Shown here: one piece after another, positions 12,108-64,000 of the stretch
How the letters are laid out: every line of letters begins with the position of its first letter
Numbering within the stretch: the first letter of the stretch is position 1
Source: Deltaproteobacteria bacterium
GTDB taxonomy: Bacteria > Desulfobacterota > Desulfobacteria > Desulfobacterales > GCA-2748835
DNA length: 64,000 nucleotides
Assembly: GCA_002748835.1 (NCBI GenBank)
Contig: PDTL01000013.1
Coordinates: forward strand, 26,576-90,575
Reading direction: 5' to 3'
Translations under genes and position numbers: made by a program
Notes under the pieces: model-generated
The model's input: the letters and a program-made list of their open reading frames with translations, nothing else
Database searches by the model: none
Told to the model about the DNA's origin: nothing

Positions 12108-12351
12108 GTTATCAGATTTTTTAGGCAACGGTTAAGGCTTACTTCATAAACTCAATGCCATGCCGAATTTGAACTGAATCTTCTGCCTCCGATGTCGGCA
12201 GGCCGGTACGGGCCGGCACCGGCAGGTCAGGTGATACGGGGCTTATTCGGTTTGGTTTGTTGAGGGGAATAGTATTTTTCATCCGAGGCCTGCTTCCGAC
12301 GGGCCTCAGGATGGTGGGCGTCAGATTCCTGGCAGGAGTGAAGGAGAAGGA

Positions 12352-13341: not shown

Positions 13342-13438
13342 TGCGACGTTCCGGGAGCGGATGCTGCTTTGCAGCTACAGATCTCCGGCACTAGGTTACG
13401 CCGGGGTCTTATTCCTATTCCTCTGAGAAGGAGCGTGA

Positions 13439-14503: not shown

Positions 14504-14542
14504 CCCGCACCCATACAATTCGAATCGGATGCCCCTAGAGAT

Positions 14543-14923: not shown

Positions 14924-15053
14924 CCGTTACAGCGATGGTGATCTGGCGATTGAGTGCAGTTTGCAGCGGTGGGGTTCTCGTTTATGCGGGCTTTTAGATT
15001 CTGATATCATCAGGGAACGCTTGATTAACCATTTGAAGGAAAGACGTATCACC

Positions 15054-17567: not shown

Positions 17568-17622
17568 CAAAGAGACATCGCTTTTCATGGGATGCGCAGG
17601 CACAGGTGGTGGAACGGGAACC

Positions 17623-18096
17623 ATGGACAGAATATTTGTAAATGATGAGTTAAATGCGACATTTGTCTGCCCGAAGTGCGGCACCTCCCGAACGGCAAAT
17701 GTGGCGAAATTTGTGGCCCATGAAAAAGAGGTACGCATCCGGTGCAAGTGTAAATGCGGACACCGGTACCCCATTACTCTTGAGCGGCGTAAAAATTTCC
17801 GGAAGCCGGTCAATTTTCCGGGTATGTATTATTATGGACCGTCGTTTTCCGAAAAAGGTCTGATGACTATCCTTGATCTGTCAAACCACGGAGTCAAAAT
17901 CCGTCTGAACGCGAGGCCGACGTTTTCTGAAGGAGACCAGATCCGGATCGAATTTAACCTGGATGACCGCGAACGGAGCCAGGTGGTCCGGGACGTCCGG
18001 ATAAAGAGTATTCAGGACCGGGACCTAGGCCTTGAATTCACGTCGCCTGCTGCGGATAATATTCTGAGAACCTACATTTTTATCAGCAACCGCTGA
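17623..18096 (+). CDS. Zinc-ribbon plus PilZ-domain protein (putative c-di-GMP receptor)
   Basis: FVCPKCGTSRT ... RCKCKCGHRY forms a Cys4 ribbon. The PilZ signatures RRKNFR (RxxxR) and DLSNHGVKI (DxSxxG) follow. The start is taken at ATG 17623. The track ORF begins at 17587. Confidence 0.75.
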   Translation: MDRIFVNDELNATFVCPKCGTSRTANVAKFVAHEKEVRIRCKCKCGHRYPITLERRKNFRKPVNFPGMYYYGPSFSEKGLMTILDLSNHGVKIRLNARPTFSEGDQIRIEFNLDDRERSQVVRDVRIKSIQDRDLGLEFTSPAADNILRTYIFISNR

Positions 18097-36411: not shown

Positions 36412-37848
36412 ATGTTTAAACAACGATGTCCAGGTGTGGCCTGCCTCTTGACGATTCTGGTGTTCCTGTGGATCCCGGTGCCGCTGCTGGCTGAAGGGGT
36501 ATCTGAACTGATTCGTGATGTTGCCGTGACCACGACTGTCTCTGAAAAAGACACCCAGACCACCATCAATGTCACCCTGAATCCGGAACAGATTTTTGCC
36601 ATGGATGATCTGGCTGAGGCCTTTGCAGAAGATGCAGACGGCGAAATCTATGAATTTACATCTGCGGATTTTATCAGAGATATGTTCAGCACACGCCTTT
36701 TCAGGGTACTGCCGTTTCAGCTTCCCGGAACGGGGATCCGTATTGTCCTGACCGATACCGACGGCAACACGCATCTGTTTCACACGCAGATAAAAACCCC
36801 CAAACGGCTTGAAGCGCCCAACGCGGTTCCCTTTGCCGGTGTCAGTTATGACGGAACCTGGGAAGGCAGTGGGGATCATTACGATGTCTCGTTCACCGTT
36901 GAAAACAATAAACTGACCCTTTTCGAGATCACCTTCGGGGTAGACTGCGGAACCGGATACTGGTACCGGCATACCTGCAGAGACTGGAATCCGCGATCAG
37001 TGGCTGACGGTGATTTTTCTTTCTGGACGTGTAATGGTTCGACGCATTTTGAAGGCACCTTTGCCAACGCTCATGAACTGAGCGGAACCCTTGAGTACAA
37101 CGGCAATTTGGGCTGTGTTTACAATGGAACCTTTGCGGCCATCAACACCATCCATCCGCCTCCTGCAGAACCGGACCCCGGCCCGGGAGATCCGGTGGAT
37201 CCGAATATGAAAACCGTCTACATCCCCCACATCACCGGCGGTTATGCGGAGTGGACAGATTACCTTCAGGTTGACAACTTCGGCATTGCCAATGCGCCCC
37301 TTACGCTCACCCTGTACGCCGCCGATGGAACCTCCCTGTACACCGGCAACCATACGGTTCCCCGTTTGGGCAAAAAGATCCTCACCTTAAAGAAGTTTGC
37401 CGGCGCGGCCACTGCAACATCCGGCGTGATTCGATACACGGAACCCAACCTGAAATTTCGTCTGACCCAGGTGATTCTGGCCGGCGGGATCGCGGAATTC
37501 GAACTCACGGATGAGCGGTCCACCGCTCTGGTCTTCATGTACACGGATTCGCTTCCGCTGTTTAACTGCCAGGCAAAAGGACTGGCCCTCACCAACTTTG
37601 GTGCCAATGCCATCAACGTTACCCTGTCAGCCATCGGCGGCGGTGCGACCTTGGCAACGAAAACTGTGACCGTGCAGCCCAACGCCCACCTGGTGGGGGT
37701 TCACGCTGCGTGGTTTCCTGGGGTTGACATCAATTCGGTGAAGTCCATCCGGGCCACGGCACCGTCTAAGTCCATGGCCGGCATTTCCATTTCAGGCAAC
37801 GCCGGGAATACCAAACTGCTGTTTACGCCGGGAATCTCCATGGACTAA
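36412..37848 (+). CDS. Secreted hypothetical protein (478 aa)
   Basis: Signal peptide MFKQRCPGVACLLTILVFLWIPVPLLAEG. The protein is beta-rich and Thr/Gly/Asn-rich, with a Pro-rich hinge (HPPPAEPDPGPGDPVDP). No family was recognised. Confidence 0.7.
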   Translation: MFKQRCPGVACLLTILVFLWIPVPLLAEGVSELIRDVAVTTTVSEKDTQTTINVTLNPEQIFAMDDLAEAFAEDADGEIYEFTSADFIRDMFSTRLFRVLPFQLPGTGIRIVLTDTDGNTHLFHTQIKTPKRLEAPNAVPFAGVSYDGTWEGSGDHYDVSFTVENNKLTLFEITFGVDCGTGYWYRHTCRDWNPRSVADGDFSFWTCNGSTHFEGTFANAHELSGTLEYNGNLGCVYNGTFAAINTIHPPPAEPDPGPGDPVDPNMKTVYIPHITGGYAEWTDYLQVDNFGIANAPLTLTLYAADGTSLYTGNHTVPRLGKKILTLKKFAGAATATSGVIRYTEPNLKFRLTQVILAGGIAEFELTDERSTALVFMYTDSLPLFNCQAKGLALTNFGANAINVTLSAIGGGATLATKTVTVQPNAHLVGVHAAWFPGVDINSVKSIRATAPSKSMAGISISGNAGNTKLLFTPGISMD

Positions 37849-40375: not shown

Positions 40376-41557
40376 ATGCGTGGACAGGATGATCGACTTG
40401 GTGGAACCAGTGGTTTTTTGGGCGCCATCATGGGGCTGGTTTCTCAGCTGCTTGACGGCATTGTCGAGACGCAGGAGCGGCAGGCCGCGGCCATGGAACG
40501 GCGGGCAGACGCCGATGAGCGAACGGTCGCTGCCATTGAGGAGCGAAACCGGCTGGAAGCACGAAAAATAAACGCACTTGAACGGATTGCCGATAAACTG
40601 GGTGAGGGCCGGCTTTCAGCGCCATCTCCCAAATCGCATACGGCCAGGACTGAAGTGGGGACAGACGATCCAGTTGAAGACGGGACCGCTGAAAGACACG
40701 GGGAAGATCTTCATGCCGTTGCGACAGATGATCTGTTTTTCCAGGAGAAGGATTCGGCAGAGGCACTGGATATAGATTCGCTGGTCGATGCGGTGGATGA
40801 CCTTTCCGTGCTGCTGGATGATCCGGCAGTGGTGGCTGCCCCTGTAGATGACTTGGCCGGCCTGCTGGATGCGCCGTCACCGGCCGCTGCACCTGTGGAT
40901 GATCTGTCCTTGCTGCTGGATGAAGTGGATGATCTTGCGGCCCAGATCGATGATGATGAACCCGGTATAACGGGCCGAGAGGCAGATGGGCCGGCTGCTG
41001 AGGGCACCGAAAACCTAGCGGATGTCATGACACAGGCAAATCCGTTATCGGATATGGATGACACAGCCCTTGTCACCAATGATGATATTGATGCGCTGCT
41101 GGCCAGCATGTCAGCTTCGGCGGCTGAACCGGCTCCGGCGGTTCCGGACACAAAAGTCGATTCACCCCCCCAGGCGATGCGAGATGCTCCTACAGACGCC
41201 GTTGACGACCCAATGGACACCGGGAATGAGCCGCCGGCTGAGGAAACAGAGATCGTAGACGATGTGGATGATCTTTCCGCGCTCCTGGATGATCTTGAGG
41301 ATGCCGGTCCGCCAACGGTTGAAGCGGCCCTTGCCGCAGAAAACCTACCAGACCCCCGAGTGGACCCGGATGCGTATAAAACTCGGATGATCAGCCGGGT
41401 GATCGGGCTGCGGGAAGCGGGGCTGACCGCAGCAGAGACCGCAGAACAGCTCAATCAAAAAGGGCTGCCCCCATTGTCCGGCAGCGGGCAGTGGAAAATC
41501 GGCACCATTGAAAAGATCTATCAGTTCATCGCGTCTTCAGCAAAACAGCGAGGGTAA
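40376..41557 (+). CDS. Acidic repeat protein (VDDLxxLLD motifs) with C-terminal recombinase-type HTH-like segment
   Basis: 393 aa with a GGAGGA RBS. An N-terminal coiled coil (RRADADERTVAAIEERNRLEARKINALERIADKL) is followed by VDDLSVLLDD, VDDLAGLLDA, VDDLSLLLDE, VDDLAAQIDD, DIDALLASM and VDDLSALLDDLED. The C-terminus is VIGLREAGLTAAETAEQLNQKGLPPLSGSGQWKIGTIEKIYQFI. Confidence 0.7.
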   Translation: MRGQDDRLGGTSGFLGAIMGLVSQLLDGIVETQERQAAAMERRADADERTVAAIEERNRLEARKINALERIADKLGEGRLSAPSPKSHTARTEVGTDDPVEDGTAERHGEDLHAVATDDLFFQEKDSAEALDIDSLVDAVDDLSVLLDDPAVVAAPVDDLAGLLDAPSPAAAPVDDLSLLLDEVDDLAAQIDDDEPGITGREADGPAAEGTENLADVMTQANPLSDMDDTALVTNDDIDALLASMSASAAEPAPAVPDTKVDSPPQAMRDAPTDAVDDPMDTGNEPPAEETEIVDDVDDLSALLDDLEDAGPPTVEAALAAENLPDPRVDPDAYKTRMISRVIGLREAGLTAAETAEQLNQKGLPPLSGSGQWKIGTIEKIYQFIASSAKQRG

Positions 41558-45384: not shown

Positions 45385-46215
45385 GTGTATACTGTATCGT
45401 ATGCTGTGAATAGCAAAGCCTCCGACAGGGGTCAAATGCAAAATGGAGTGTTGTGTTTCATGGTCGTTCAGCAGTTGAAAGTGGTTTCAAAATTTTTGCA
45501 CCATGTGCTGGGCGTACGTCCGTGGGCGTTCGGGCTGCTGCCCGATGCGGATGGTTATGTGCGGATCAGGGACCTCTTAAACGCCCTGCACGAGGAAAGA
45601 AAATGGCGGCATGTGCGGGTGGGGATGCTCAAGGAAGTGTGTATCACACTGCCCAACGCGTCGATTGAGATGACAGAGACCTGCATCCGGGCAACAGACC
45701 GAAACCGGCTTGCTTCCGGTAAAACGGCCGAAAACGTACCAAAACTCCTCTATACCTGTGTACGGGCCAGGGCCCATTTTCATGTGGTGAACAAGGGGCA
45801 TTACCCGGCAGGAGATAGACCGGTCCTGCTGTTTGCCGACCTGGATAAGGCAGTGCGCGTGGGCGAACGAAAAGGACAGAAACCGGTGCTGCTCACGGTT
45901 CAGATGGCTGCGGCGGCTGAAGCAGGCGTGGCGATCACGGCCTTCGGAGACGGGATGTTCACCGCACCCTTTCTGCCCCAGGGCACGTTTACCGCACCGC
46001 CCCTGCCCAAAGCGCGGGCGCACAAGCAGCGTCCAGAAAAAACAAAGAAAACCCCGCCCCTCGCGTCGCCGCCCATGGCCGGCGGTTATCTTCCGGATCC
46101 GGACCGGCTGCGTCATCCGCCCGGGCGCACTGGAAAAAAAGGAAAAGACAAAGGCGGGTGGAAACAGGAGCGAAAACGGGTGCGACGGGAAAAAGAAATG
46201 TACGGGACCGGGTAA
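45385..46215 (+). CDS. Divergent Tpt1/KptA-like (RNA 2'-phosphotransferase fold) protein with Lys/Arg-rich C-terminal tail
   Basis: VSKFLHHVLGVRPWAFGLLPDADGYVRIRDLLNAL and LLYTCVRARAHFHVVNKGHYPAGDRPVLLFADLDKAVRVGERKGQKPVLLTVQ run parallel to KptA (SKFLS.VLRH ... LYHGT ... HYVHLS ... PVILTV), but the catalytic positions differ. The start is uncertain (45385, 45436 or 45460). Confidence 0.45.
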   Translation: MYTVSYAVNSKASDRGQMQNGVLCFMVVQQLKVVSKFLHHVLGVRPWAFGLLPDADGYVRIRDLLNALHEERKWRHVRVGMLKEVCITLPNASIEMTETCIRATDRNRLASGKTAENVPKLLYTCVRARAHFHVVNKGHYPAGDRPVLLFADLDKAVRVGERKGQKPVLLTVQMAAAAEAGVAITAFGDGMFTAPFLPQGTFTAPPLPKARAHKQRPEKTKKTPPLASPPMAGGYLPDPDRLRHPPGRTGKKGKDKGGWKQERKRVRREKEMYGTG

Positions 46216-46253
46216 GTGCCGGCCATCGGGATACGATAAATAAGGAGGATGCA

Positions 46254-46475
46254 ATGAAACAGACAAAACGTCTGGTCGGGGTGATCCTGCTCGGATGCAT
46301 GGTCGTCGGGTGCGGGAAAGACACGGATACCCGGAAAACGGCAGACACGGTGGTCGAGGATGTCACGGGGTATACCACCTACAAACAGGGAGAACGGGTG
46401 AAAGAAAAACTCGAGAACCTGGAACTGCAACAACTGGAACGGATCAAGGCAGCCGATCAGATTGCAGACGAATAA
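46254..46475 (+). CDS. Small lipoprotein (73 aa)
   Basis: AAGGAGG RBS. MKQTKRLVGVILLGCMVVGCGKD carries a lipobox. The track ORF starts upstream at 46158, inside the previous gene. Confidence 0.65.
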   Translation: MKQTKRLVGVILLGCMVVGCGKDTDTRKTADTVVEDVTGYTTYKQGERVKEKLENLELQQLERIKAADQIADE

Positions 46476-46685: not shown

Positions 46686-49600
46686 ATGTCAAATACGCGT
46701 GTGAATTTGAGTCGGAGGGCTAGGGGTGTTCAGTCTGCGGTAATGATGGTTTTCATGGCATGGGTGCTCGCTGCGGCGCCGGCTGCACTCGCGGATGTGT
46801 CGATTACGGCCACAAACAGTGCTGCCACCAGTCCCTGCGCTGTGGAGACCTATACGGTGAGCGTCACCAATCCTGCGGATGACGATATGACGGAGATGGT
46901 TATCACGGTTGAGGTTCCCGATAACACGTTTGCCTTTGTCGCGGGTTCCGCAACGATCACTACCCCGCAAAACGGGAATCTGGCAGGAAGTGATGCCAAT
47001 CCGGCGATTTCAGGAAACCAGCTTGTGTGGAATCTGGATGATCCTGCCCTGTTTAACGGGAATGTGGCGGTTGCCAAAAATGAAACCCTTACCCTGACCT
47101 TTGACGTCAGCTACAGTTGCACGTCAACCGGCGGTGCGGTCCTCGTGACGCTGGGCGCAGAGCGTCCGCGCGGACAAGCCATGAGCGAAACCAATACCGT
47201 CAATGTGGATGTCTATCCGGGTGCGGTGACCATTAAAAATTCCCCTGAAATTCAGGATGTCACCCTCGAGTCGCTTCCGGACAACGAGGAACCCACCTGG
47301 CAGGTAACCATCGAAAATACCGGTCTGGGAACTATTTACAATATCGTGGTTCGCGACGTTTTTGGGTCTGGGTTAGCGTATATTGATGGCTCTGCGCAGA
47401 TCGGTTCAACCCCGCTGACCCGGTCTGGTGATGACTGGGATCTGTCTCAATTCTCGGCAGACCCGGACGGTAACGGCACCGGCCTTGCGGACCTGGACGG
47501 GGACGGTGAATATGACGACCTTCCACAGGGCGAAACAATTACGATCACTGATGTGCGGGCAACTATAGTCGGCTGCACAGATCTGACCAGCTCTGCGGAT
47601 ATCCGGTACGGCTGCGACGATACAGCTTCAGGGGTCTGTTATGATTCGGCCACTGCCGGAGAAACCGCGTCAGCCAGTGTGGCGGCGCAAGTGGTGGATC
47701 CGGACATATCGATCGCCTTTGACGCGGCCGGGAAACTGGATAATATCAGTTTCTGTGACGGGGCTGATGATGTTACGCTGGCGATTACCAACGAACCTGA
47801 TGGCGGTCTGGCCCGTTATGTTTCCTATAAGGTGGACAGTTTTCCTGCAGGATGGACGGTCACCGACATAAAACCGGCAGGCGTTACCTGGAACAGCACG
47901 GAAGGCCAGTTTGAAAACATACCGGATATAGAAGGCGGCGAGACCGAAACCATTACTTTTGACCTGATCTGGGAAGGCCCTTCCGGTGATCCCTGTAACG
48001 CAGCCGCTGCCAGTTCCGCTCTGTTGATGACAATTCAGTACACCAATGTCTGCGGAACAGCGTTTACGCCGCCCACACAAAACGACACCCTGTCCATGGA
48101 ATCTGGCCTGGGGCGCCTGACCCTGGAGGCCGCTGCAGACATAGGCACGGACCGGGTGAATGTGGGTCAAACAGGAATTTCCATTGATCTGACAGCGACG
48201 GTGGGGAATATCACCGGCCCCAATGCCGGATTCAGTGGCAACACCAATATCACCTACACCCTGCCGCCTGGCTGGGCGGTAACAAATGCTGCCGGGGGCA
48301 CGGTTTCCGGGAATATCAACACCGGTTTGGTCATTACCTGGCCCCATACCTTCGACAGCGCGAATTCCCTGTTTGCCGAGACCATCACCGTGAATGCAAC
48401 CGAAGATCCCTGTGACGCGGGCAGTTTGGTGAACATGGAACTTGATGTCGATGCCATGAATCCCCTAGATTGCAAGGGGTGCACGTATACCCTGGAAGAG
48501 ACGGTGACAGATTCCGTGTTTGTGAATCTGGATTCTGCAACGAATGATCCGCTGGAAGATTCAAGTAAAACCATTACCTATGACAACCCTTTGAATTCGG
48601 CTGCGGGCGAAGCCTGCCGGCAGGCCATTTACACGGTGACCTATAATTTTTCGGCAAATGCGCCGGATACGTGGGCGAATATTGTTCTGACAGAAGAACT
48701 GATTCTTGATCAGACATTTGCAGAACTTGTCAGTGTGACCTATAACAGTGCAGACTATACGTCGTCTGTCGCCACATCCACTTCGGGTACGTCTGTCGAA
48801 TTTGATCTTTCCGGTCTTGAGGGCAGCGCACCGGCCCCCAGTGCCGGTCATGTGCTGGCGGTTCAATTCAAGACAGACAGTGTCAGCAACAGCGTGGGGG
48901 CCGGCGTCCAGTTTTCCCACCTGACGCTTCCGGGTGTTCCCTCTGACTGCAGTTCAGACGATGATTACGAAGAAGGCGTGCCGGTCAGTTTTGGCCGTCA
49001 GACCATGGACATTGCCCTTTCTGGTCCGGATCTGGTTGGACGCTGTGATGTTAAAACCTATCGGATCACGCTGACCAAAAACGATGACTATTACGCCTAT
49101 GATCCGGTGGTGACCCTGAATCTGGATCCGGATGGGGACGGCGAAAGAAACTATGGTTATCTGCCAAACTCGGCCAATCTGGACGGATTTACGGATGAAG
49201 GCGGAAGCCCGGTAACCAACTTTGAACCCACGGTTTCAGGCAATACCCTGGTGTGGGATTTTTCAATTCAGGGGGGGACCGGTGTTGATTATGAGTCAGT
49301 GGACTATATCGAAGTCGATTTGCGGTTGGGCTGCACCGCAGCGGCTGCGGATGGTCTGGAGGCAGACGTTGCTTACAATACCTGGTGTGATAATGATGTC
49401 AAGCCGCCAGTAGAAAGCGATTCTGCCACCTATGCCCCGGATGCCTCATACATCATCGGGCCTGCGTTGACGGTTTATCAGACGCCGGAGAAGTATTATG
49501 CCGAGGCTGGCACGGCTGCATGGGATCTGTATATCACCAATACCGGCAGCGGTGTTGCCTACAACGTGGTGTTGCAGGATGAACTCGGAGGCGATCTGGC

Positions 49601-52600
49601 CTATGCGTCATCCACCTGTAACGGGACGAATCTGGCTGTGGAAACTTCCGGGCAGACCGTGACATGGCGGTTCCAGCTGACCGCAGATCCGGACGGGCCA
49701 GGCGGCCTTGATGACCTTGACGGTGATGGATTTTATGATGACCTGGCACCGGGAAAATCCGCCAAGGTGTCCGCCGTCTTTTCCATTGTCGAGAACGGGT
49801 GCACGGAGATGACCAGCACGATCACCGGGCACAGCAGTTGTGATGTGACGGCGGCAAACCCGCAGACCGCCACATGGAACGGCATAGAATATTGTGACGA
49901 CTCAACGCCGGACACGGCCGAGGCCTTTGTCCGGAGCACGCAGGTGGTGACCGCCAATCAGTTTGCCGGCCCCATGCCCCTGTGCGGATCTCAAACCGCA
50001 TCCTTTATTCTCAAGAATACAGGGCTGGCAACGATCTACGATGTGGATGTCAAGCAGGCCCTCCCTGCCGGCATCAGCTTCCAGAACAGTTCAGCGCTTT
50101 ACGATCTTGATCTTGATGGTGACGGAACGTATGAAACGCAGAACCAACCCCTCGTCGATCCGCCGGAAGGAATCGGAACTGCGGCTGATCCGTACATCTG
50201 GGATGAAGGCGAGATTTCGGCGCTGGCCGCGTTGGCACCCAAGGCGTCCGTTAAAATCCATTTTACGGTCGAATCCACCTGTGGCGCCAGTGGCACCAGT
50301 CTTAATTTTGCGAGCAGTGCTGACTGGGAAACCGCCTGCGGAAGCGGGATTTCATCGACCGCGAAAATCGTCCGGATGGAACTGGCGGACATGGATGTCG
50401 GCGTGACGACGGAAGTCAGAAATGTCACAGCGGGTACGCCATTCACCTCAAATGAGTTCGGCGCAGACCCTGGCGACATGGTGGAGTATCGCCTTACCCT
50501 GACCAACCAGAGCGACGGAACACTCACCGCCGAGAATGTGCGTCTTGCGTGCACCCTGCCTGAGAACGCCATTACAGGGACAGTGACTTCAGCCAACCCG
50601 ACGCCGACAAGTACGAGTCCGCTGTATTGGGATGTGGGGGATCTGACGTCAGGCGCAACCACTCAGTTTACCTTTCAGGTACAAGTCGATGCCTGCGTAG
50701 ATGATGATCTTGAATCCGTGGTTACGTTTGGCTGTAATACCCCCCAATGCGAAGCCGGCAGCAATACAGAGGCCATGACGCTGCATGCAACGCCGGATGT
50801 CTCTACGGATGGTTCGATCACCGTCACGGGCGCGAATTTTACCACGGCCGGCGGGGATGTGACCATTGTGATAGACAATGCCGGCAGTACGGCGTCCAAT
50901 CTGAATCTGAGTTATACTCTGCCGGATGGGTATGTGTATGATCCATCAAACGGGGGCGCCACCATCACCAGCTCCCTGGGAGTGAGTTATGCCGGAGACG
51001 ATGAACCTGCGGATCCGAATGCGGACCCGCTTGTCTTTTCCGGGCTGAATAGTCATACCCTGTCTAACGCCGAAACCCTGACCATCCAGTTCCACGTCAA
51101 GGGCGACGGTAGTGGCTGGGATACAACCGCAGCGAACGACGCAACCGATCCGCTGGATATTGCAACCATTCCGGATACCGTTAACCATTCGGCCGTGTTT
51201 TCGTTTGATAATTCCTGCGGTGATTCGGATAGCGCAACAGCCAACGAAACCATCAATCCGTTGAATCCGGATATTGATATTACCCTGACCGAGGTAAAAC
51301 AGGTTGTGGGCGAAGGTGGCACCGCCACCTGGGTCCTGACCCTGACCAACAAGGGGGATGCCCCGGCATCGAATATTGTGCTGACCAATCTTATCGAATC
51401 CGGACTGACCAACGCGACCGTCACATCGGGTCAGGCCCCGGATTCAGGAACCACCGCCGCCAACGGCACGTGGACAATTCCCGGCCCCATTCCTCCCGGC
51501 GGCACCTGGACGGTAACTATCACTGCGGAGGTGGATACGCCGCCAAGCGGCCCCCTGACCCATACTGCCACAGTGGAAGGGTTTGCAAAGGATGCCGCAG
51601 GCACCACCATCGGCACCTACACCCATGATGAAGCCAAGGCCTATGTGGTCTGTTTCGATATGGACAAAACGGTGGATAAATCAACCGCCAATGTGGGGGA
51701 ACTGCTCACCTATGATCTGACCGCGACGTTCAGTAATACCGAAACATATCAGGATGTGGTGCTCAAAGATGTCCTGCCCGCCCATATGACCTATGTGGGT
51801 GTGACACCCCAGACAGATCATACGGTGGCAGACGGCGGTGTTACGGTCAGCGGCCAGACACTGACATGGTCGCCGGCGTCGTTTACCGGCAGACAGGTGT
51901 TTCATATGAAGGTGACCGCCCGGATTGACAATGATCCGGCAAATACCGGTGCGCCGACGCAGACCACGCTGACAAACACATTTGAAGCCGACTTTGATGT
52001 GGATTTCAACGGAGACATCGTTGAAATAAATCCGGATAATCCGGATGACAAGGCGCGGGTTACTGCGGACACCCTTGTGACAGAACCCAAACTCACCCTG
52101 ACCAAAACCATGACACCGTCTCTGGCGGATGCCGGGGATACCATCACCCTTACCCTGACTGTTGCCAACACCGGTGACGGCACGGCGTATAACGTCGATG
52201 TTTCGGATTACCTGAACGATACGGATGGGGACGGCAATGTATCGTCGGATCCGGATGATAAGGTCATCTTTGTTTTAAACTCTGCCACAGCGGTGACAAC
52301 ACCGCCGGGCTGGACGTTCGCTGACTCCGGCAGTGCGGCTGAGAACTATGCCGTGACCTATACCAGTAACGGAGGTAGCGAAGGCTATATACAGGCAGGC
52401 CAGACCCGCACGTTTGTGTTTACAGCAACCTTGGAATCATCCATTGTTGCCGGTACCACCTATACAAATACGGGGCGCACGGATGGGCATTCGCTCTCAG
52501 ATGGGGATGCTGAACATGACAACCCGGATTTTGACCGGATTCCCACAGACGACGGAACCGCTGATATTACCGTTGCCGCGCCGGGTATCCAGACCAAACT

Positions 52601-55600
52601 CCTGACGAAAACATCAGAAGATCACACGGACCCGGGCGACAGCAATCTTGCTGCAAATCCGCCCCTGGCCATTGGTGAAGTGGTCTCTGTGAAGCTCTAT
52701 TTTTCCTTTCCCGAAGGGTATACCGAAAATGTACTGCTCCGGGATCGCCTGCACAACCTGCTCACCGTTCCATGGGGTGAGTACGTTCCCGGATCCGCCC
52801 GGTTGTCAAAAAATTCGGATGACCTTACCTGCGCTAACGACCCGGGAGGGATCAATAGCGCGGCCACAGGCACCCCGGTGAATGTCAGCGTTAACACAAC
52901 TGCCGATGATACCTATGCGTATATCGATTTAAACCTGGGAACGGTCACCAATGCCAATACCGCGACGGGTGTTACGGAAAGCTTTACCTTCACCTTTGAT
53001 GTGGTGGTCCGCAATGTGGATGTGACCAATGCCGGCGCACAGCTGGTGGATGAAGGACTGATCCGTTACACGCCGGACGGCGGCGCCGATATCTGGGTGC
53101 CAACGGCTCCGGTAACCGCCCATGTGGCAGAGCCCGTCTTGTTCGTTGCCCTGGATGCGTCTCCAGGTGCGGCGGATGGTGGGGAGACGGTCACGTTTAC
53201 CCTCCGCCTGGAGAACCGCGCCAGCGGTGTGAATGGAACCGACGCCTTTAATCTTGAATTTTCCGATCTGCTGCCGGCGGACTTTACCAATCCCGATAAT
53301 TTTACTGTGGTAAGCAACGGCGGCGGCCGGACGCTCACCCCGTGCACAGGGGGAAATTATTTTAACGGAAACCAGCTCTGCGGGACCATTGATCAGCTGG
53401 GACCCGGAGAATATATTGACGTAACTTTTACGGCCGACCTTATTGATGAGGCGGCATATGGGAAAATCATTACCACCGAGGCCACCCTCACCGGGACGTC
53501 TTTGCCGGGTGAACAGGGAACAGGTGACGCGACACCGGGTGCTTCCGGTGCTGAAAATGGTGAGCGTACCGGAAGCGGCGTCAATGCCAATGACCTGTCT
53601 GTATCCGATCCAGCGGTTGTGTCTGTGTCAAAACCTTACATCAGCAAAAAACTGGTGCCGGAAAACCTCTGGTTCGCGATTGGTGAAACCGCATCCTATG
53701 TGGTGACGGTGCCGGTGCCGAAAGGGTCGGCAACCTCTTTTGTGGTCACTGACACACTGTCAGCCGGGCTGTCCTTTGTGCCCGGCACCCTGAGTGTCGT
53801 CCTGCCAGGAGGCATGACGGCATCAACGACGCCTCTGACAGAAGGTAACGCGGCGTTCTTTACCGCTTCAGGAAGTGACTTGACCTTTGACTTTGGTACG
53901 CTCACGGCGTCAGCTGCCGATGATATCGTGATCACCTATGATGTGAATGTGGATAATGTGATCGAAAATCAGGATGGCGATTTTCTGGATAATGCCGTCA
54001 AACTCACCTACACCGATCCGTCAGGCGGCAGTTTTACTGTGGGGCCGACGGTGAGTGTGCCGCGGCTGCGGGTGGGTGAACCAAACCTTGAAGTGGAAAA
54101 GACAATTACCGCAGGTGCCGTGGGATCAAATGGCGGTGACACCGTGTCGTGGCAGGTGGTGGTGCAAAATACGGGACACACCACTGCATACCAGATGAAC
54201 TGGTCCGATGTGCTGCCGGCCGGTCTCTATCAGATTTCGGGACAGGCGCTTTCCGTGATCGGAGACGTGTTTTTAAATGACACCAGCACGTCGCTGAATA
54301 CCTCGCATCTGGCGGTATCCACAACCACCAACCTAGAGGACACGATTTCCCTGCCCCTGTTCCAGATGGCGGCAGGCAGTGAGGTGACCATCACCTTTGA
54401 CGCGGTGATCATGAATTCGGTGACGGGTGGTGAAACCCTGACCAATGCGACCCGGGTGAATTATACCAGTCAGCCGGATGGCGGCCGCGATAATTCTACG
54501 AATCCAGGCAATGTGGACGATGATGACGATACGGACCTGAACAACTATGAAGAAGGCGACGCTGCATCGTTTACGACCGGTCAGAACATTGCCATTGACA
54601 AGATGGTGCTGGGAGACCGGGATATCCCCGTGGGCGGTCTGGCGGTGTTCCGGATCCGGGTCAGCCTGGACCAGGGAACCACAAACGCACTAAAAGTGAT
54701 AGATAAGCTGCCGGACGGTCTGGCCTATGTAAGTAATACCATCACGCCGGGTACCATGGGCATGGTGATCCAGAATACCGGATATACGACGCCAACGGTC
54801 AGCGGGCAGACCGTGACATTTGATTTCGGAGATGTCACCAATCCCGCTGATGGATCTGCGGACAACGATTATCTGGATATTGATCTGTCTGTCAGGGTGA
54901 AGAATATTCCCACAAACCAGCAGGACGTGGAGCTGAAGAACGGTGATGATTCACAATCCTCCGAAACCTGGCTGGAATATGGTCCCACCGCCGACACGGT
55001 CTATGTGGATACGGACCCCGGTACGCCGGGTCATCAGGGTGTCAGTGTCGCTGTGGTGGAACCGAACCTGGTCATCACCAAAACTGCTGCGCCAGTGACG
55101 CCTGCTGTGGGCGCCACCGTGACCTTTACCATACGGGTGGAACACACGGACAGTGCGGCAGACGCCTTTGACGTGACCGTAACTGATACGCTTCCGGCGG
55201 GTCTGACCTATGTCATGGGTTCCACGACGCCGCCTGCAACGGCAGATGAAACGGATCCTACCCGTCCGGTCTTTTCGTTGAATACCATTACCCAGACAGA
55301 AGGATTCAAGGAATTTTCATTTCAGGTGACCGTGGATCCAGGTGCGGCGTCCGGACAAACCCTGACCAATACGGCCAGAGTTGACTGGAGCAGCATCACC
55401 GGTGCAGACGGCACCACTGACAGCGGCCGGAACGGTGACAACTGTCCGGGGCCGACCGGATTGAATGATTATTGCGATACCGATACCGCAGATGTCACCC
55501 CCACTATGTCTGCGATAATCGATGCGACGAAAACCGTTGCCATTGCCGTTGACGCCGACGCCGACGGTGAAGTGGATCCGGGGGACACCCTCGCGTACAC

Positions 55601-58600
55601 GATTACGCTGGTTAATGACGGCCCGGCAGTGAACGGGGTGGTGTTCACAGATACGATTCCAGAACATACCGCCTATGATCCGGGTTCGCTCACCACAACC
55701 CGGGGCACGGCAGATGATTCCGGAAACCCGGATCTGTCCGTTTCTGTGGGCGCAATGGGAACGGGTGAAACGGTGACCATCACCTTCCGGGTTATTGTGG
55801 CTAACGGCACGCCGGAAGGCACCGTCATCCGCAATCAGGGCAGTGTGGACAGTGACGATACGGTACCCGAACCCACGGACGCAGACGGGGATGACACCAA
55901 CGGTGATCAGCCCACGGATATTCCGGTGGGCGGCACGCCCGCCGGCGCAGATCTGTATGCGTGGAAAATCGTGGAGTTGACAACCGATGCAGACGCATCG
56001 GGTACGATCACCCCAGGCGACACCCTGCGCTACTGGATTCAGCTGCAGAACACCGGAGATACGGAACTGAGTGGTGTGAGCCTCTCTGACACCATTCCGG
56101 CAGGGCTGACCTATGTGGCAGGCTCTGAAGAGACCAGCGATCCGTCAAGCACGCTGACCATTACGGGCGATGCGGTTTCGCTGACAAACATGACCCTTCC
56201 TGTGGGCGCATCCGGCGTTATCTGGTTTGATGTGACCGTGGACGGTCCGCCCTTGTATAACACGGATGCGGATCCCGACACGGAAACCTTCGTGAACCAG
56301 GGAACCGCAAACAGCGATCAAACCGATCCGGTCCTGACAGACGCCAACGGCGATCCGTCAGACGGGACCCAGCCCACAACCTTCACGGCTGTGGATGGCT
56401 CGGCAGCCGGATCTCCGGAAATCGACCTCCAGAAACGCTGGAGTCTTTCCAGTGATGTAAACGGAAATGGGGTCGTCAATCCCGGGGACAGCATTGCCTA
56501 TACACTGACCCTCACCAATACAGGGTCTGCGGATGCACAGAACGTGCGTCTTTCCGATCCTGTTCCGGTAAACACCACCATGGTCCCGGGATCAGTGACC
56601 ACCAGCTGCGGTGTGGTAATCGGTGAAAATCCGGTGTCCGTGAATGTGGGGACCCTGGCGCCAGGCAAGGTGGTGAATATCAGCTTCCGGGTGACCGTGA
56701 ACAGCGGCACACCGGGTGGTACCCTGATCGCCAACCAGGCCACAGCCACGGGCGATAACTTTGGCGATACGAAGAGTGACGACAATGGAGATGAAACCGA
56801 CGGCCGCAACCCGACCCTGACGCCGGTGGAAGATCCTGGTACGACCGGGGTGACCTCACCATCCGCTCTGACCAAATTGCTCCATGCCACGTCGGAATCC
56901 GGCAGCCTTGCTGCGAATGTACTCATCGGCGAGATCGTGACCTATCGGGTCTCCGTGACCCTGGCCAAAGGCACCACCCGTCACGCGACCCTGTCAGACA
57001 CCCTGCCGGCAGGCCTGTCCTATCGTGCCGGTACCGCCCGGCTGGCTGCCGTATATGATACGGCCCTGAACCTGTCCGAGAATCCGGGGAACATTAATGC
57101 GGCAGCATCCGGGGCCTTTGTCAACCTGACAGACGGCAGTGACATCACCCGTTCCGGGCAGACCCTGTCTGTTTTTCTCGGGGATGTCCTCAACTCGGAC
57201 AATGATACCAACGCGGAAACCCTGACCCTGGAATTCCAGGCCCTGGTCACCAATGTGAACGGTAATCAGGCCGGCGAAAGCCTGACGGACACGGCCAATC
57301 TCAGTTACCGGGATGCCTTGAATCAGGACCGCAACCTGATCCCTCAAACCCACACGGTCACCGTGACCGAGCCAATGATGGCGGTTTCAAAAACAGCGGC
57401 CCAGGCGGCATTGATGCCAAGCGGTGGAGATATCACCTATACCCTGGTCATTACAAACACCGCTGGTGCCCATTCGGCGACCGGTTATGATGTGATGATC
57501 GAAGATACCCTGGACCCGGCGTTTACCGCCCTGACTGTGGACAGCATGACGCCGGCAGGTGGTGTCTCGGGTGTGACGGATACGACAGCCGGAACCACCC
57601 TGACGGTCTCGGCGGCGGTGTTCCCGGTGGGAGGCACTCTGACCATCGTTTACACCGGTACGATTCCCGGTCCGCTGACCACAGGCGACACCTTTGCCAA
57701 TACGGCCCGCCTGAACTGGACCTCCCTGCCTGGAGAGCAGGGAACCGGCGATGTAACACCGGGTGCAACCGGTGCGGCAGATGGCGAGCGAAACGGCACG
57801 GGCGGCGTAAACGACTATGCGGATCAGGATGCGGTGACCGTGGCCGTGGACACCCTTGTATTTGAAAAATCAGTCAACCCGACCGGTACGCTTCCAGTGG
57901 GCTCGACGGTGACCTATACCCTTGTGGTCACCTTGCCGGCGTGGAACGTGCCGATTAATGATTCACTGATTACCGATGTGCTGGATCCGGGACTGGACTA
58001 TGTTCCCGGCACATTGCTCGTGACCCCGTCCGGTGCGGCTGGTGAGGTGACCTATTCCGCAGATCCGGACTTTACGGTCACAGAAGACAGTCCGGCAGCC
58101 GGTGACGAGACCCTGACCCTGAACCTGGGTGCGGTCACCAATACCGCCGCTGATATCCGGACCCTCACCCTCACCTATGCGGTGCGGGTGGCAAATAGCC
58201 TTGTCAACCAGTCCGGTCATGACCTGAGCAATGCGGCCACCTTTACTGGTCAGCCGGAAGGCGGATCGCTGGTAACCTTGACGGACGCTACCACGGTTAC
58301 GGTGGGGGAACCACTGTTGACCCTGACAAAGGAGATTACCAGTAACACCACAGACCTTGAGGCGGGAGACCGCATTGATTATCGTGTGACCACAGGAAAT
58401 ACCGGGGTCACAACAGCCTATGAAACTGTGCTCACCGATACCCTGCCCACCAGCCTGACCGATGTGCAGGTTGCAAATGTCACCGTAACCGGTGGCGGGG
58501 AAACACCCAGTGTCACCCCAGGTATGGGCGGCTGGACGACCAGCGCCTTTGATCTGCCGCCGGGCGGTCAGGTGGTGATCACCTTTTCAGCAGCACTGGC

Positions 58601-61600
58601 AAATACGGTTATGCCGGGTGAATCCCTTCAGAACGGGGTGAACGCGAGATATACCAGCCTGGACGGTGCAGATGCAAACGAGCGCGATGGCTCGGATCCC
58701 GATCCGGACCAGACCGATGACAGCGTGCTGAACAACTACGGTATTGATGCCCTGTCGCCTGTGGTGATTGTGGCAGACCCGGTGGCGCTGGATAAGCGGT
58801 TTTATCCGGATCCGTCCGTCACCACCTATACCATTGGTGAAACCGTCCGGTACCGGCTGACCGTGACCCTGGTCGAAGGCACCGTGGAAGACCTGGTGGT
58901 AACCGATATCCTGCCGGATGGCCTTCATTTTGTATCCGCCGTTGTGTCGGCCGGTCATACCAACCTGACGCATCACTATACGGCACCGGTGGCCGTAAGC
59001 GGCCAGGAACTCACCTTTGACTTCGGCACGGTGGTCAACCCGGCCAATGGGTCGGATTCAGATGACGTCCTGGTCATGGACATTGAAACCGTGGTGGAAA
59101 ATATCGCCGCTAACCAAGATGGTGTCCGGCTGGGCAACCATGCCGGAATGACCTTCACGGATGCGGACGGCCACCCGGTAACCCGGGACTATGACGCGGA
59201 TACGGGAACACCCGGTGTCCAGCCGCTGGAACTGGAACTGGTTGAACCGGTGCTGGTCATTGAAAAGACCCATAACCTTGAGTATCAGTCCCTTGGCGAT
59301 CAGGTCAGCGTGACCCTGCGAGTGGCCCATACGGCAGAGAGCAGGGCGCATGCGTACGACCTTGTGATCACGGACACCCTGCCCGCAGGGTTGCGGTTTG
59401 TCACCGGCTCTGCTTCTGTGCCCCCGGTGGTTTCAGGAACGCCTGCAACGGGCGAAACCCTGACATTCACCATTACTGACCTTTCCCTGGCCGCCCATGA
59501 GATGGTGATTACCTATCAGGTGAGGGTGAGCCCGGGTTCGGTGGTGGGGACACCACTGGTGAATTCTGCCCTGCTGACCTGGGGCAGTATTCCGGGTGCC
59601 ACAGGCGATCCCACCGGCGGCCGGACGGGCGGCGACTGCGGTGAAACCGCGCCGCTGAACGACTATTGCACGGTGGATGATGCCCAGGTGATACCGATCA
59701 CAACGCTTTTCATCGAGGCGGTAAAAACCGTGGAAGACGTGAACGGCGGTCGGGTGATGCCGGGAGATGAACTGCACTATACCGTGGTGCTGACCAATGT
59801 GCATCCCAGACAGGATGTGACGAAGGTGATGTATGTCGATCCGCTTCCTGTGATGGCCGACTATGTGGCAGGTTCGATGACGCTGGAAGGTGCGAGCCTG
59901 ACCGACGCGGCTGACGGGGATGCCGGAGACTACAATGTCTCGCTGAGTCATGGACTGACCATTGACGTGGGCATCATGGAAAGTGCACAGTCGGTGACCA
60001 TCCACTATCGTCTTCAGGTGCCGATGGACACGCCGGTCGGTGTGGTGATCCGCAACCAGGGGACGGTTGACAGTGCGGAAACGGTTCCAGAGCCCACGGA
60101 CGAAGATGATAACGACGCCAACGGCGACCAGCCCACGGAAGTCGTGGTGGGCGAAGACCCTGTATCGAATATTCGTGTGGAGAAACGGGTCGCCCTTTTA
60201 GACGATATTGTAGCGCCCACGGACGGTACCCTGAATGTGGGAGATACGGTTCAGTACACCATTCTCATTCGGAATACCGGAGACATGCCACTGACAAATG
60301 TGGCCTTTTCTGATGAGATGCCGGCCGGCGTCACCGTGACGGGTGTGTCCAACGCATCCTGGAGTGGCGGACAAACCGTCACAGCGGCGTTTGCCCAAAT
60401 TCCTGTGGGCGGGTCTGAAACAATTACTATCACGGCAACCTTGATCGCTGCCGGTCGCCTTTTGAATCAGGGAGTCGTGACAACGGATGAAACCGGTTCC
60501 CATGAAACGGACGGCAATTCGGATACGGAAGACGGGGACCAGCCCACGGTAATCAGGGTTGAAGAACCGTCCGTTGCCGGAACGCCGGAGATCCGTTTAG
60601 TCAAGACCGATGCCCTGGTAGAGGATCTGGATGAGACCGGATCCGTGACTGTCGGTGATACCCTGCGCTATACCCTGAGCGTCCGAAACACCGGTTCAGC
60701 TCCGGCAACAGCCGTACGCGTACGGGATGCGATTCCGGTCCATACCACGCTCGTGGCGGGATCCGTGTTTACCAGCCAGGGGGCGGTTGTCACCGAGGAT
60801 CCGATGGACGTGAACGTGGGAACCCTTGCACCGGGTGAGGAAGTGATCGTCACCCTGCGGGTGACCGTTGACGCGGGAACGCCTGCGGGTACCCGTGTGT
60901 CCAACCAGGCAGTGGCAAGCACCGCAGAGACGCCGGATATCCCGAGCGACGACCCGCATACGCCGGAAACGGATGACCCCACCGAAACACCGGTGGTGGG
61001 AATGCCGGAACTCCGGATCTGGAAAACAGCGAATAAGGCGGAAGTCGCTCCTGGAAAACGTCTGACCTATACCCTTCATTATGAAAACCTGGGCCCGAGT
61101 AACGCGTCCCGGGTGGTCATCACGGATGAGGTGCCCGGCGGTACCGAGTTCATTTCTTCGGACACCGGCGTGCTGGTGACTGATACCACCGTTCGATGGG
61201 AGCTGGGAACTTTGATCGCAGGATATAGCGGCGCTGTTTCCTTTACCGTACGGGTGGATTCCTCGGTGCCGGATGGCGCGGAAATCGTCAACAGTGCTTA
61301 CCAGATGACCACCTTTCAGACTGAGCCGGTTACCGGGGATCCGGTGACGGTTCCGGTGAATAAACCCAGCCCAATCCGGAAACGGCCGGACCTTTCCACC
61401 TCCGGTAAAACCGTGAGCGACATGAACGGGTGCCCGCTGGAACCGGGGGATACACTGCTGTATACCGTAACCCTGATCAATACAGGAAACGGGATGGCGC
61501 CGTCTGTCTGGTATACGGACCTGCCCGATGCGCTGTCCATTCTGGAGAATGGGTCGGTGACTACCACAAAAGGGAAGGTGAATCGCGGGAACTCACCGGG

Positions 61601-63128
61601 TGAACCGGATATCCGCATCAATGTGGGTAACTTGGCACCGGGAGAGACCTGTACCATTACCTACCGGGTAACCGTGGGCGAAAACGCGCCCGCAGGCAGC
61701 CTGCTGTCCAATCAGGGGATGATGGATCTCGGGGTTTGCTATCCCTCCTTTGTCACGGACAATCCCTTAACGATTGCCAAAGGGGATCCCACGTTCATTG
61801 GTCCGGTGGGCGGCAGCGACGGAGGCATGGCACCGGTTTCCTTTGAAAAACGCGTGATTGATCCGTTAGATAGCTATGCGCCGGGAGATTCGGTACAGCT
61901 GGAAGTACGGGTGACCCATCACGGTGCAGACACCACAGAGGGGATGGTGATTGTCGACGCCCTGCCGGAGTCCCTCATACTGGTAGAAGAGTCCTTGTCC
62001 GCTGTGAACGGCACCGCCCATGCCGGGCCACCGATCCGCTTTTTCGTGGAACCCCTGGCCGCTGGCGCATCAGCGATCCTGACCTATACGGTGATGATCA
62101 GCGAAAGCGTCGTTCTGAACACGGAGATTTTCACCCAGGCCCAGCTCTACTACGGCGGGACCGACTGCAACCGGGTGGAAAGCGACAACCCGGACACCAG
62201 TGCTGAACTAGACGCGGTGCGGATCTTTGTGGGTGAACGAACCCAGGGACCGGATGTGCGGGTGACAAAAACAATTCAGGACCTGGATGCCGGCCTGCTC
62301 TTGAATGGTGACAGGCTCCGGTATCGGATACAGGTCACCAATGCGGGTGACCAGCCGACATCCGTGCTTCACCTGACAGATCTGCTGGCGGAATACCTGG
62401 TACTCAATCCCGGCAGCATCGAAACCGCAGGTATCACCATAGACCCGGCAGATACGGTCATCACGGGTACCATTGCGCCACTGGCGCCGCAGGCCGATGC
62501 CTGGGTCGCGTTTACCTGCAGGCTCGACTTCGCACCGGGAACACCGGCCGGTACAGGAGTGGTAAACCAGGCTGAGGTAATGGATTCAGACGGCGTCCGG
62601 TTTGAATCGGATGATCCGTCCACAGCGGCAGATTTGGATCCCACTGTGCGGCTGCTTGATATGGCTGTGCCTGTGTTGGCGCCGCCCTATGGTACCCTGC
62701 GGGTCGTTTCCGAAAACGACTATCTGGTGTGGGAAATGACCTGGCGTCAACCGAATCCGGACTGGTCCATGATCACCCATGTACGGGCGGAATTGCCGGA
62801 AGGTGTGGATTGGGTGACAGACAGCCTGGAATTTGATGCAGGGGATGCCATGTATGATCCCGTAACCCTACGGATTCGCTGGGCCGTCAATCTGGCACCG
62901 GATGGTCAGCCAGCGACCCTGCGCTACCGTACGCGTCCCCGTGCGGGACTTACAGAGACCGCAACCCAGGCATCCGCCTGGTGGGACCAGAACATGAACG
63001 GGAAGGTGGATGCGGATGAACGGGCGCAATCGCCGGTACTCACCGATGACCCGATGACGGATACGCCACTGGATCCCACCCGCTGGACCGGATGCTGGGA
63101 TTGCAGTGGAGGGATGAAACCCTTCTGA
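46686..63128 (+). CDS. Giant (5,480 aa) secreted DUF11/conserved-repeat-domain surface protein (adhesin-like)
   Basis: Single 16,443-nt ORF with the signal peptide [20 protein letters not shown]. It has dozens of ~100-aa Ig-like modules with the DUF11 signature, e.g. [108 protein letters not shown] and [25 protein letters not shown]. The composition is Thr/Asp/Gly/Val-rich. All internal antisense or off-frame track ORFs are rejected. Confidence 0.9.
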   Translation: [5480 protein letters not shown]

Positions 63129-63229: not shown

Positions 63230-64000
63230 ATGTATATCACAGAACGATGGCGGTTGCGCGAAATCCTTCTCACCCTGATGCTGTTCCTGCTGTCTATGCC
63301 GGCAATGGCTGGCGATTCGATCGGAGTCTATGGTCTGAACGGTTACGGTTATACGGGAGATCCGGTACCGGTGGAGGGCGTCTATCTTCAGATTGGCGGC
63401 ATGATATCGACCTATCATGAAAACAATCTGAAGTGCAGGGACGGACATATTATGGCTGTTCCCTTGAGTATCAGCGCGGGAAACGGCACCCATTGGCAGC
63501 TGGCCGCAGCCACGCACTGGGAACGGTGGAAAAATACGGATTTCGACAATGATGAGGACGGCTTTGGTGATCTGTTTGTGGGCGGGAGCTATCAGATGCT
63601 GCATGCGGATGCCGGGCATCTTCTGGATCTCTCACTGGGCGCCCATTTGCTCGTGCCCACCGGGGACCGGGACAAGGCCATCGGTGATCTTTTTCTTTTC
63701 AATGCAACAGACACCGACGACACCGTAGCCGGTGTCAACCTGCGCATCGGGAAAAGCTGGGGCGACTTGCGCCTGACTGCGGACCTGGGCGCGAACAAGG
63801 TGCATGCCAAAGACGAGGCACTGAAGGATAACAGCTGGACCTTCGGTGCGGCAGCCGCCTATACCGTCTCCGACCATCTGACCGTCTATACGGAAGTGTT
63901 CAACCACCACCACCGGAACCGGGAGACCCCATCAAGCGATTCCAGCTGTTATGACCCGGACCGGAAAGACGACATCCGGGAGATCGCCCTGGGTGCGTTC
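63230..64000 (+). CDS. Putative outer-membrane beta-barrel protein (MetA-pathway/transporter-like), 5' part; continues beyond window end
   Basis: Absent from the ORF track (no stop in the window). ATG 63230 follows GGAGGAG. My translation is open for 257 codons to 64000. It reads MYITERWRLREILLTLMLFLLSMPAMAGDS (signal peptide) ... DGFGDLFVGGSYQML ... LSLGAHLLVPTGDRDKAIG ... WTFGAAAAYTVSDHLTVYTEVF, with alternating beta-strand patterns. The family call is tentative. Confidence 0.6.
   Translation, partial: MYITERWRLREILLTLMLFLLSMPAMAGDSIGVYGLNGYGYTGDPVPVEGVYLQIGGMISTYHENNLKCRDGHIMAVPLSISAGNGTHWQLAAATHWERWKNTDFDNDEDGFGDLFVGGSYQMLHADAGHLLDLSLGAHLLVPTGDRDKAIGDLFLFNATDTDDTVAGVNLRIGKSWGDLRLTADLGANKVHAKDEALKDNSWTFGAAAAYTVSDHLTVYTEVFNHHHRNRETPSSDSSCYDPDRKDDIREIALGAF

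Follow-up and report, generated by a model that had tools for sequence, protein, structure and literature searches.

A single gene of 16.4 kb, located at positions 46686..63128 on the forward strand of the DNA analysed here, probably encodes a giant adhesin that forms a surface fibre on a diderm member of the Desulfobacterales. The protein would be of a known kind, with a stalk of CLIPPER domains locked by isopeptide bonds. The DNA (the window) is a stretch of 64,000 nt from contig PDTL01000013.1 of the assembly GCA_002748835.1. The gene product has 5,480 aa and is not uniform. Its N-terminal ~1,640 aa form a Cys-rich head whose modules lack the isopeptide triad, and the head is followed by a stalk with predicted Lys-mediated locks. 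This Cys-rich head is unannotated and rarely seen. The protein ends in a short tail, and the gene is followed by that of a small outer-membrane barrel.

The stalk (51615..62633, +; aa 1644–5316) comprises 24 CLIPPER-class modules, numbered 9–32, and the full triad is present in 22 of them. CLIPPER is the new name of DUF11, and DUF7507 has been renamed CLIPPER_2 (PMC12617251). When the matches of three overlapping pieces of the protein were summed, with a few possibly counted twice, Pfam DUF11 was found in 24 stretches and TIGR01451 in 23. The PF01345 (DUF11) scores were 157–304 bits per piece, against a curated cut-off of 24.6. The further Pfam families in the protein were DUF7507, DUF7927, DUF7933, DUF7619, GramPos_pilinBB and GBS104-like_Ig, and the NCBIfam matches were TIGR01451 and TIGR04226 ('isopeptide-forming domain') only. 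When the 24 stalk modules were searched one by one, DUF11 matched 19, DUF7507 11, DUF7927 6, TIGR04226 14 and TIGR01451 21. A self-trained hidden Markov model (HMM) recognised 34 modules, 33 of them strongly, which tile aa 38–5436 with a gap at 312–773. The weak module (aa ~644–741) sits inside the region aa 301–780, where three beta-sandwiches are predicted, and the whole protein is estimated to have about 37 Ig-like domains. An earlier note on this DNA had described dozens of Ig-like modules of the DUF11 type and had proposed parsing them with DUF11/TIGR01451 HMMs. The parsing bears this description out, and the modules cover nearly the whole protein.

In the alignment of the stalk modules, Lys is found in 23 of 24, Asp in all 24, and Asn or Asp in 22 of 24. 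The Lys residues fall in one column of the first strand, the Asp lies in a D-x-L-P motif, and the third residue, Asn in 20 modules and Asp in 2, lies in the last-strand motif L-x-N-x-A. The full Lys/Asp/Asn(Asp) triad was found in 22 of all 34 modules, every one of them within aa 1644–5316. In 12 of these 22 modules, which have ~150 residues, the triad Lys is the only Lys. The whole protein has 79 Lys residues (1.4%), roughly one per module, and this very low content would make the isopeptide prediction easy to test by mass spectrometry. Lys depletion, with stalk Lys nearly confined to the isopeptide position, could also reflect selection against trypsin-like cleavage sites.

When the profile of the stalk modules was compared with PDB sequences, the best match was to the N-terminal Ig domains of GhpA (9flp, 9e-29), and matches to EbpB (9lj6, 3e-10), to the CLIPPER domain 9IFR (4e-10) and to further isopeptide pilins, including RrgB and BcpA (2x9z and 3kpt are among the PDB matches), were also obtained. 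The triad columns align in the matches to 9IFR, EbpB and RrgB. The crystal structure 9IFR was determined for a domain of a 2,129-aa adhesin of Acinetobacter silvestris (B9T28_05395), which has a CnaA-like fold and the triad Lys715, Asp748 and Asn806 (PMC12617251). The Lys–Asn isopeptide bond of CLIPPER confers thermal and protease stability on this Gram-negative fibrillar adhesin (PMC12617251). In the HMMER alignment, the K, D and N columns of the stalk fall on K10, D44 and N101 of chain 9ifr_A. By offset, K10 and N101 are the bonded Lys715 and Asn806 in the numbering of PMC12617251, and the Asp of D-x-L counts to 749 versus the published Asp748, a numbering discrepancy of one residue.

The AlphaFold2 (AF2) model of module 9 (aa 1644–1789) has 8 strands and a mean predicted local distance difference test (pLDDT) score of 81.7. 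Its top PDB match in Foldseek was 9IFR (E 1.3e-6, TMt 0.74, root-mean-square deviation 2.7), followed by EbpB and RrgB. The structure prediction that had been proposed for a representative module returned an Ig-like sandwich. With scores above the cut-off, triad residues at the expected positions and the matching fold, the stalk modules belong to the CLIPPER/DUF11 (PF01345) family, and their predicted fold is the CnaA-like Ig beta-sandwich. The residues and the modelled fold required for isopeptide locking are shown to be present in the stalk, and we infer that the covalent Lys–Asn bond would form in 22 of its modules. The earlier note's label of a DUF11-repeat protein needs updating: the family has lost its status of unknown function and is now CLIPPER, with a Lys–Asn isopeptide bond established by crystallography (PMC12617251), and the stalk carries its triad.

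The protein begins with a predicted Sec signal peptide (46686..46793, +; aa 1–36). By inspection, it has a basic n-region, the sole hydrophobic segment of the whole protein (aa 14–40) and an A-L-A/D site after A36, and therefore it looks like a Sec signal peptide cleaved after A-L-A, as had been claimed. No transmembrane helix was found in the giant protein. The head starts with two Cys-containing DUF11-like modules without triad (46797..47633, +; aa 38–316). They are followed by a conserved N-proximal region (47586..49025, +; aa 301–780) with three predicted beta-sandwiches and near-invariant Cys, and by six further triad-less modules (48963..51614, +; aa 760–1643), most of which have 1–4 Cys and several of which have DxDGDG loops. 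The nine N-terminal modules all lack the triad, and each has 1–4 Cys except the last of the nine (aa 1517–1643). The protein had been described as rich in Thr, Asp, Gly and Val and almost free of Cys. The first part stands (T 13.5, V 9.8, G 9.3, D 9.2, A 9.2 and C 0.8%), and the second is true only of the stalk; the first 1,360 residues contain 27 of the 44 Cys.

The region aa 301–780 matched no Pfam model and had no sequence relative in the PDB. An exhaustive HMMER search of this region against 1.84 billion representatives gave 16 proteins at E<1e-10, including the protein itself (P0067). The matches are colinear over ~470 residues with 27–44% identity, and the Cys residues are near-invariant. 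In BLAST the colinearity reaches the first ~1,600–2,200 residues of the relatives, with 35% identity over 1,448 aa for P0068, 29% over 1,717 aa for P0071 and 26% over 2,150 aa for P0070. A word-indexed search with the N-terminal 1,000 aa gave one weak match only, which reflects the sensitivity of that method, because the exhaustive search found the head family; a genome scan with the N-terminus as query gave no match. Nearly all matches in the word-indexed protein searches had fewer than ~1,350 aa; relatives of 2,000–3,000 aa came from the exhaustive search. Word-indexed searches may under-sample giant proteins, and their finding of no orthologue is not to be trusted for proteins of this size. 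P0067 had also appeared as a candidate orthologue (92% identity, 5,480 aa). It was rejected, since it is residue for residue the window's own protein and gives no independent support.

In the AF2 model (pLDDT 82), the region aa 301–780 is all-beta and folds into three beta-sandwiches, and Foldseek matched it to strings of Ig-like domains (integrin legs, PrgB, AgI/II C123). A thioester domain was considered for the Cys-rich head and dropped, since the modelled sandwiches are plain and no thioester-domain family matched. The genes for relatives of the head stand in arrays with several large CLIPPER genes, in which a stop codon often overlaps the next start codon. The locus of closest homology (L083 6384–24298, with a head identity of 35%) appears as consecutive CLIPPER open reading frames (ORFs) of 416, 2,765, 939, 162, 1,018 and >2,716 aa, and it is either a giant gene fragmented by frameshifts or a true multi-gene array. 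In two other loci (L081 1120–14198 and L090 1087–21252), the head-family genes belong to operon-like arrays, again with stop codons that overlap start codons. The gene before the head-family gene in L081 encodes a 2,293-aa CLIPPER/SdrD_B protein that ends in an OmpA domain, which suggests separate subunits for anchor and head that may be fused in one chain in the giant protein. A head that is conserved while the stalk varies agrees with the usual logic of fibrillar adhesins, in which the functional end is distal.

At the other end, the giant protein has a divergent Trp-rich last module and a 45-aa tail (62634..63125, +; aa 5317–5480), and no Pfam family was found in these 164 aa at E<=1. The tail closes with the motif TGCWDCSGGMKPF-COOH (63087..63125, +), a candidate sorting or anchoring signal. 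Among known types of signal, LPXTG sorting was rejected because LP.TG occurs nowhere in the protein, and sorting by a CTERM helix because there is no C-terminal hydrophobic helix. An RTX adhesin exported by type I secretion, of the LapA or MpIBP type, was also rejected, since the only GGxGxD is at aa 863, outside the C-terminal part, and a Sec-type signal is present. The next gene encodes an outer-membrane beta-barrel of the PF13557 (Phenol_MetA_deg) type (63233..64000, +, cut by the window end) with its own signal peptide, which confirms the barrel gene reported earlier at this place. The full barrel (P0086) has 292 aa, matches PF13557/OMP_b-brl and has no sequence relative in the PDB. The matches of the barrel and of its homologues are to PF13557 (E 2.5e-5 to 3.3e-11), not to PorP_SprF. 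No terminator-like site was found between the giant gene and the barrel gene, in promoter and terminator scans that were uninformative overall.

In a set of 5.8 billion proteins, the sole homologue of the barrel was DENIS_2573 of Desulfonema ishimotonii, with 40–43% identity. Its gene lies downstream of that of a 5,505-aa CLIPPER/SdrD_B giant, on a 6.6-Mb contig of an isolate genome (BEXT01000001.1). Over their last ~580 aa, a stretch that includes the Trp-rich final module, the two giants align colinearly with 34% identity. The D. ishimotonii giant ends with SPCPDCVPPLKPF. The C-termini are ...GCWDCSGGMKPF in the window and ...PCPDCVPPLKPF in Desulfonema, with the common motif C-x-D-C-x3-[LM]-K-P-F. 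Among 1,748 long reading frames from all fetched loci and 87 proteins, only these two giants have a [KR]PF C-terminus. Between the giant and the barrel of D. ishimotonii (L088 8598–9953), a 451-aa protein is encoded that has a signal peptide and an OmpA domain. Pfam gives it a weak match to an acidic repeat of the thrombospondin type 3 kind, and inspection shows a vWA-like DxSxS near its N-terminus. This protein is plausible as a peptidoglycan-tethering partner.

The giant ORF starts with ATG and continues for 5,480 codons without an internal stop, and the window has zero N or ambiguous bases. The ORF takes 16,443 of the 64,000 nt (25.7%). The claim of a single uninterrupted gene of about a quarter of the window is therefore correct. 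Given the window's stop-triplet frequency, the probability of 5,480 stop-free codons is ~1e-82, and GAAGG is located 9 nt 5' of the ATG. The mature protein has ~566 kDa and is strongly acidic (D+E 740 versus K+R 214). Seven acidic loops of the DxDGDG type, five of them in the head, may bind calcium. The codon usage of the giant gene is that of the other genes in the window, and recent horizontal transfer was rejected on this ground. The longest direct DNA repeat in the gene is 52 nt long with 73% identity, and no tandem arrays were found in it by DNA repeat analysis. Because the modules are too diverged at the DNA level and long repeats are lacking, misassembly or repeat collapse is unlikely. 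At 90% identity the protein clusters with no other, and it is encoded on one contig of 220 kb.

In the proposed explanation, the giant protein would be exported by the Sec pathway through its cleavable signal peptide. The head would contribute ~12 Cys-containing beta-sandwich domains, probably stabilised by disulfides, and it is likely the distal end that contacts the ligand, a function assigned by inference. The 24 CLIPPER-class (DUF11/DUF7507/DUF7927) domains at aa 1644–5316 would form a rod. In 22 of them, the first-strand Lys, the Asp of D-x-L-P and the last-strand Asn/Asp would autocatalytically produce an intramolecular isopeptide bond, and the fibre would thereby withstand heat, pulling force and proteases. 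With 4–5 nm per domain, the fibre might reach roughly 0.15 um. The Trp-rich domain and the CxDC-x3-MKPF tail may be held at the outer membrane by the downstream small barrel, as PorP/SprF barrels and PorE hold the type-B cargo (SprB, GhpA) of type IX secretion (T9SS). The role of tail and barrel as an outer-membrane anchor is suggested by this analogy and can be proposed only tentatively. A more far-reaching version, which we regard as speculative, is that the Trp-rich domain, the CxDC-x3-[LM]KPF-COOH tail and a dedicated PF13557-type barrel, together with the vWA-like/OmpA protein in Desulfonema, could form a previously undescribed system of the Desulfobacterales for holding, and perhaps exporting, giant adhesins at the outer membrane. 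Such a system would be a T9SS-independent counterpart of PorP/PorE, and the head would represent a new ligand-binding family.

Several points weigh against this explanation. The surface location of the giant protein, its isopeptide bonds and its expression are predictions from sequence, and the explanation offers no route for a 566-kDa protein across the outer membrane. Of the features that define fibrillar adhesins, the signal peptide (by inspection) and the long tandem stalk are present, and a recognised adhesive domain and a recognised anchor are absent. No adhesive, ligand-binding domain family of Pfam or NCBIfam was found in the giant protein. Neither was any anchor or sorting signal found by Pfam/NCBIfam and motif scans for LPXTG, OmpA, Por_Secre_tail/CHU_C, a PEP-CTERM-type helix or RTX. 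Twelve of the 34 modules, mostly N-terminal, have no triad. The link between barrel and giant rests on two genomes (n=2), and PF13557 proteins are annotated as transporters, with the barrel falling outside PorP/SprF. Elsewhere the head-family loci have no barrel but CLIPPER arrays, one gene of which has an OmpA domain. Upstream of a third copy of the barrel, found by metagenome scan (L089), there is a transposase and then the end of the contig, and this copy is therefore uninformative on the pairing. From the sequence, none of the specific roles raised in the earlier note (mineral or cell-cell adhesion, S-layer) can be assigned, and no ligand can be inferred from the head.

A rival reading is that the giant protein is released rather than anchored, as an extracellular matrix protein, a protein that cements aggregates or a cation-binding polyanion, with the barrel as an unrelated transporter that travels with it. 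The lack of a known anchor signal, the transporter annotation of PF13557, the extreme acidity with DxDGDG loops and the small number of genomes behind the barrel link all agree with release. However, the barrel has just two homologues in very large collections, and the only one with a readable upstream context follows a homologous giant. The C-terminal tail of rare residues is also conserved, and no terminator-like site separates giant and barrel. Release is considered unlikely. Still less probable is a multi-stranded appendage or a sheath-like coat, comparable to an S-layer or to the grappling hook that GhpA forms as a heptamer, in place of a single-chain adhesin. Among PDB sequences, GhpA (9flp, E 9e-29) matches the module profile best, its size of 5,898 aa is close to 5,480 aa, and its gene order, giant followed by outer-membrane barrel, is similar (bioRxiv 10.1101/2024.01.29.577165). 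The related Desulfonema is filamentous, glides and attaches to other filaments (PMC6390638). But the homology to GhpA is confined to its N-terminal CLIPPER-like domains (aa ~40–1100), and the giant protein has no T9SS C-terminal domain (CTD).

An assembly artefact, a chimera or a decaying pseudogene without full-length product would fit a protein that is a singleton on one contig. It would also fit the closest homologous locus, whose consecutive ORFs show that such genes break or are mis-called. Against it, the 16.4-kb frame is intact far beyond chance, there are no DNA repeats >52 nt to collapse, and every part of the protein matches domain models or conserved family regions. The codon usage is native, the triad residues are conserved, and the D. 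ishimotonii relative of 5,505 aa was read from a 6.6-Mb contig of an isolate genome. An artefact is thus hardly credible, and the anchored or surface-bound fibrillar adhesin with an isopeptide-locked CLIPPER stalk is the preferred explanation.

The gene upstream of the giant is a small lipoprotein-like ORF of 73 aa (46247..46468, +) with a signal sequence and a lipobox-like LLGC/VVGC, in agreement with the lipoprotein gene mentioned in the earlier note. It is separated from the giant gene by 217 nt, and it had no Pfam family at E<=1 and no homologue in any fetched locus. The housekeeping neighbours encode Mpl, a class-III aminotransferase and Tpt1/KptA. Among 185,579 species representatives, the highest identity to the Mpl protein is 61%, and its best matches are all from Desulfobacterales, Desulfobacteraceae, Desulfosarcina or Desulfonema. 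The outer-membrane phospholipase PldA is also encoded in the window, and this enzyme together with the outer-membrane barrel indicates a diderm envelope. These results support a host from a lineage of diderm anaerobes. In 80 Mpl loci of Desulfobacterales, the aminotransferase is kept in 47 and Tpt1 in 35, and the giant, the lipoprotein and the barrel are missing from all of them.

Other genes of the window are recorded here as side observations. The Tpt1/KptA-like RNA 2'-phosphotransferase (45385–46215, +) ends in a long C-terminal tail rich in Lys, Arg and Gly. In 35 of the 80 relatives its gene shows synteny with those of Mpl and the aminotransferase, and the giant-gene region, which follows Tpt1 in this window, does not follow it in those genomes. 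A gene cluster of regulatory or motility type (8853–18096, +) is located 29 kb from the giant gene. It encodes a Ras/MglA-like small GTPase (8853–9470, +), a response regulator with DUF4388 (13439–14503, +), an 868-aa ATPase of the PilB/GspE type with an N-terminal extension of ~290 aa (14961–17567, +) and a PilZ protein (17587–18096, +). A 526-aa metallo-beta-lactamase/beta-CASP nuclease is encoded at 2384–3964 (-). Its scores for type VII CRISPR Cas14 (386 bits, cut-off 800) and for archaeal aCPSF1 (305 bits, cut-off 580) are both below the cut-offs. Two ORFs at 36412–37848 (+; 478 aa) and 40376–41557 (+; 393 aa) had no Pfam or NCBIfam match, and Rfam and tRNA scans of the window gave nothing.

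Isopeptide-locked CLIPPER stalks of diderm bacteria were proved by experiment only in 2025, for one domain of a 2,129-aa protein. The giant gene adds 22 predicted locked domains on one chain from an uncultured lineage of sulfate reducers. It goes beyond the ordinary in this scale, in its rare Cys-rich head, and in the lack of a known anchor despite a conserved pairing of tail and barrel. The rare barrel and tail, which recur in the cultured D. ishimotonii, offer a concrete and testable candidate for the way in which diderms outside the Bacteroidota carry half-megadalton adhesins across the outer membrane and retain them there. If the link between tail and barrel fails, the giant protein would be an ordinary representative of a common family, albeit a very large one.

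Among known systems, the Gram-positive pilins RrgB, EbpB, BcpA and SpaA, which are assembled by sortase, have homologous isopeptide-forming domains. In contrast to these polymerised subunits, the giant is one huge polypeptide of a diderm host and has no LPXTG and no pilin motif, and no sortase was found among the window ORFs scanned. The A. silvestris CLIPPER adhesin (9IFR; PMC12617251) is like the giant in its Sec signal, its stalk of tandem CnaA-like Ig domains, its diderm host and its triad columns. The giant is 2.6 times longer (5,480 versus 2,129 aa). It lacks the CshA-like adhesive domain, the cadherin-like repeats and the C-terminal OmpA anchor of that adhesin, and has instead an unannotated Cys-rich head and a short CxDC...KPF tail peptide.

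The T9SS type-B cargo systems share with the window the gene order of a giant Sec-exported Ig-repeat protein followed by an outer-membrane barrel of ~300 aa, and an OmpA-type peptidoglycan binder is encoded in the Desulfonema locus as well. The known layouts are ghpA-ghpB(PorP)-ghpC(PorE) (bioRxiv 10.1101/2024.01.29.577165) and the PorP-PorE-PG1035 and SprF-SprB complexes (PMC9143113). Unlike the type-B cargo, the giant has no T9SS CTD, and its barrel is PF13557-like and not PorP/SprF. The T9SS has been described as specific to Bacteroidota/FCB (PMC7463736), and the host here belongs to the Desulfobacterales. Because the CTD and a PorP/SprF-family barrel are both lacking, the anchoring through tail and barrel is an analogy of layout only and not a case of membership. 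The D. ishimotonii giant differs from the giant of the window in a stalk rich in SdrD_B, with an extra SdrD_B before the tail, and in its locus the vWA-like/TSP3/OmpA gene stands between giant and barrel, where none is visible in the window. The two giants come from one taxonomic order and are alike in size, in the C-terminal ~580 aa with its closing motif and in the PF13557 barrel downstream.

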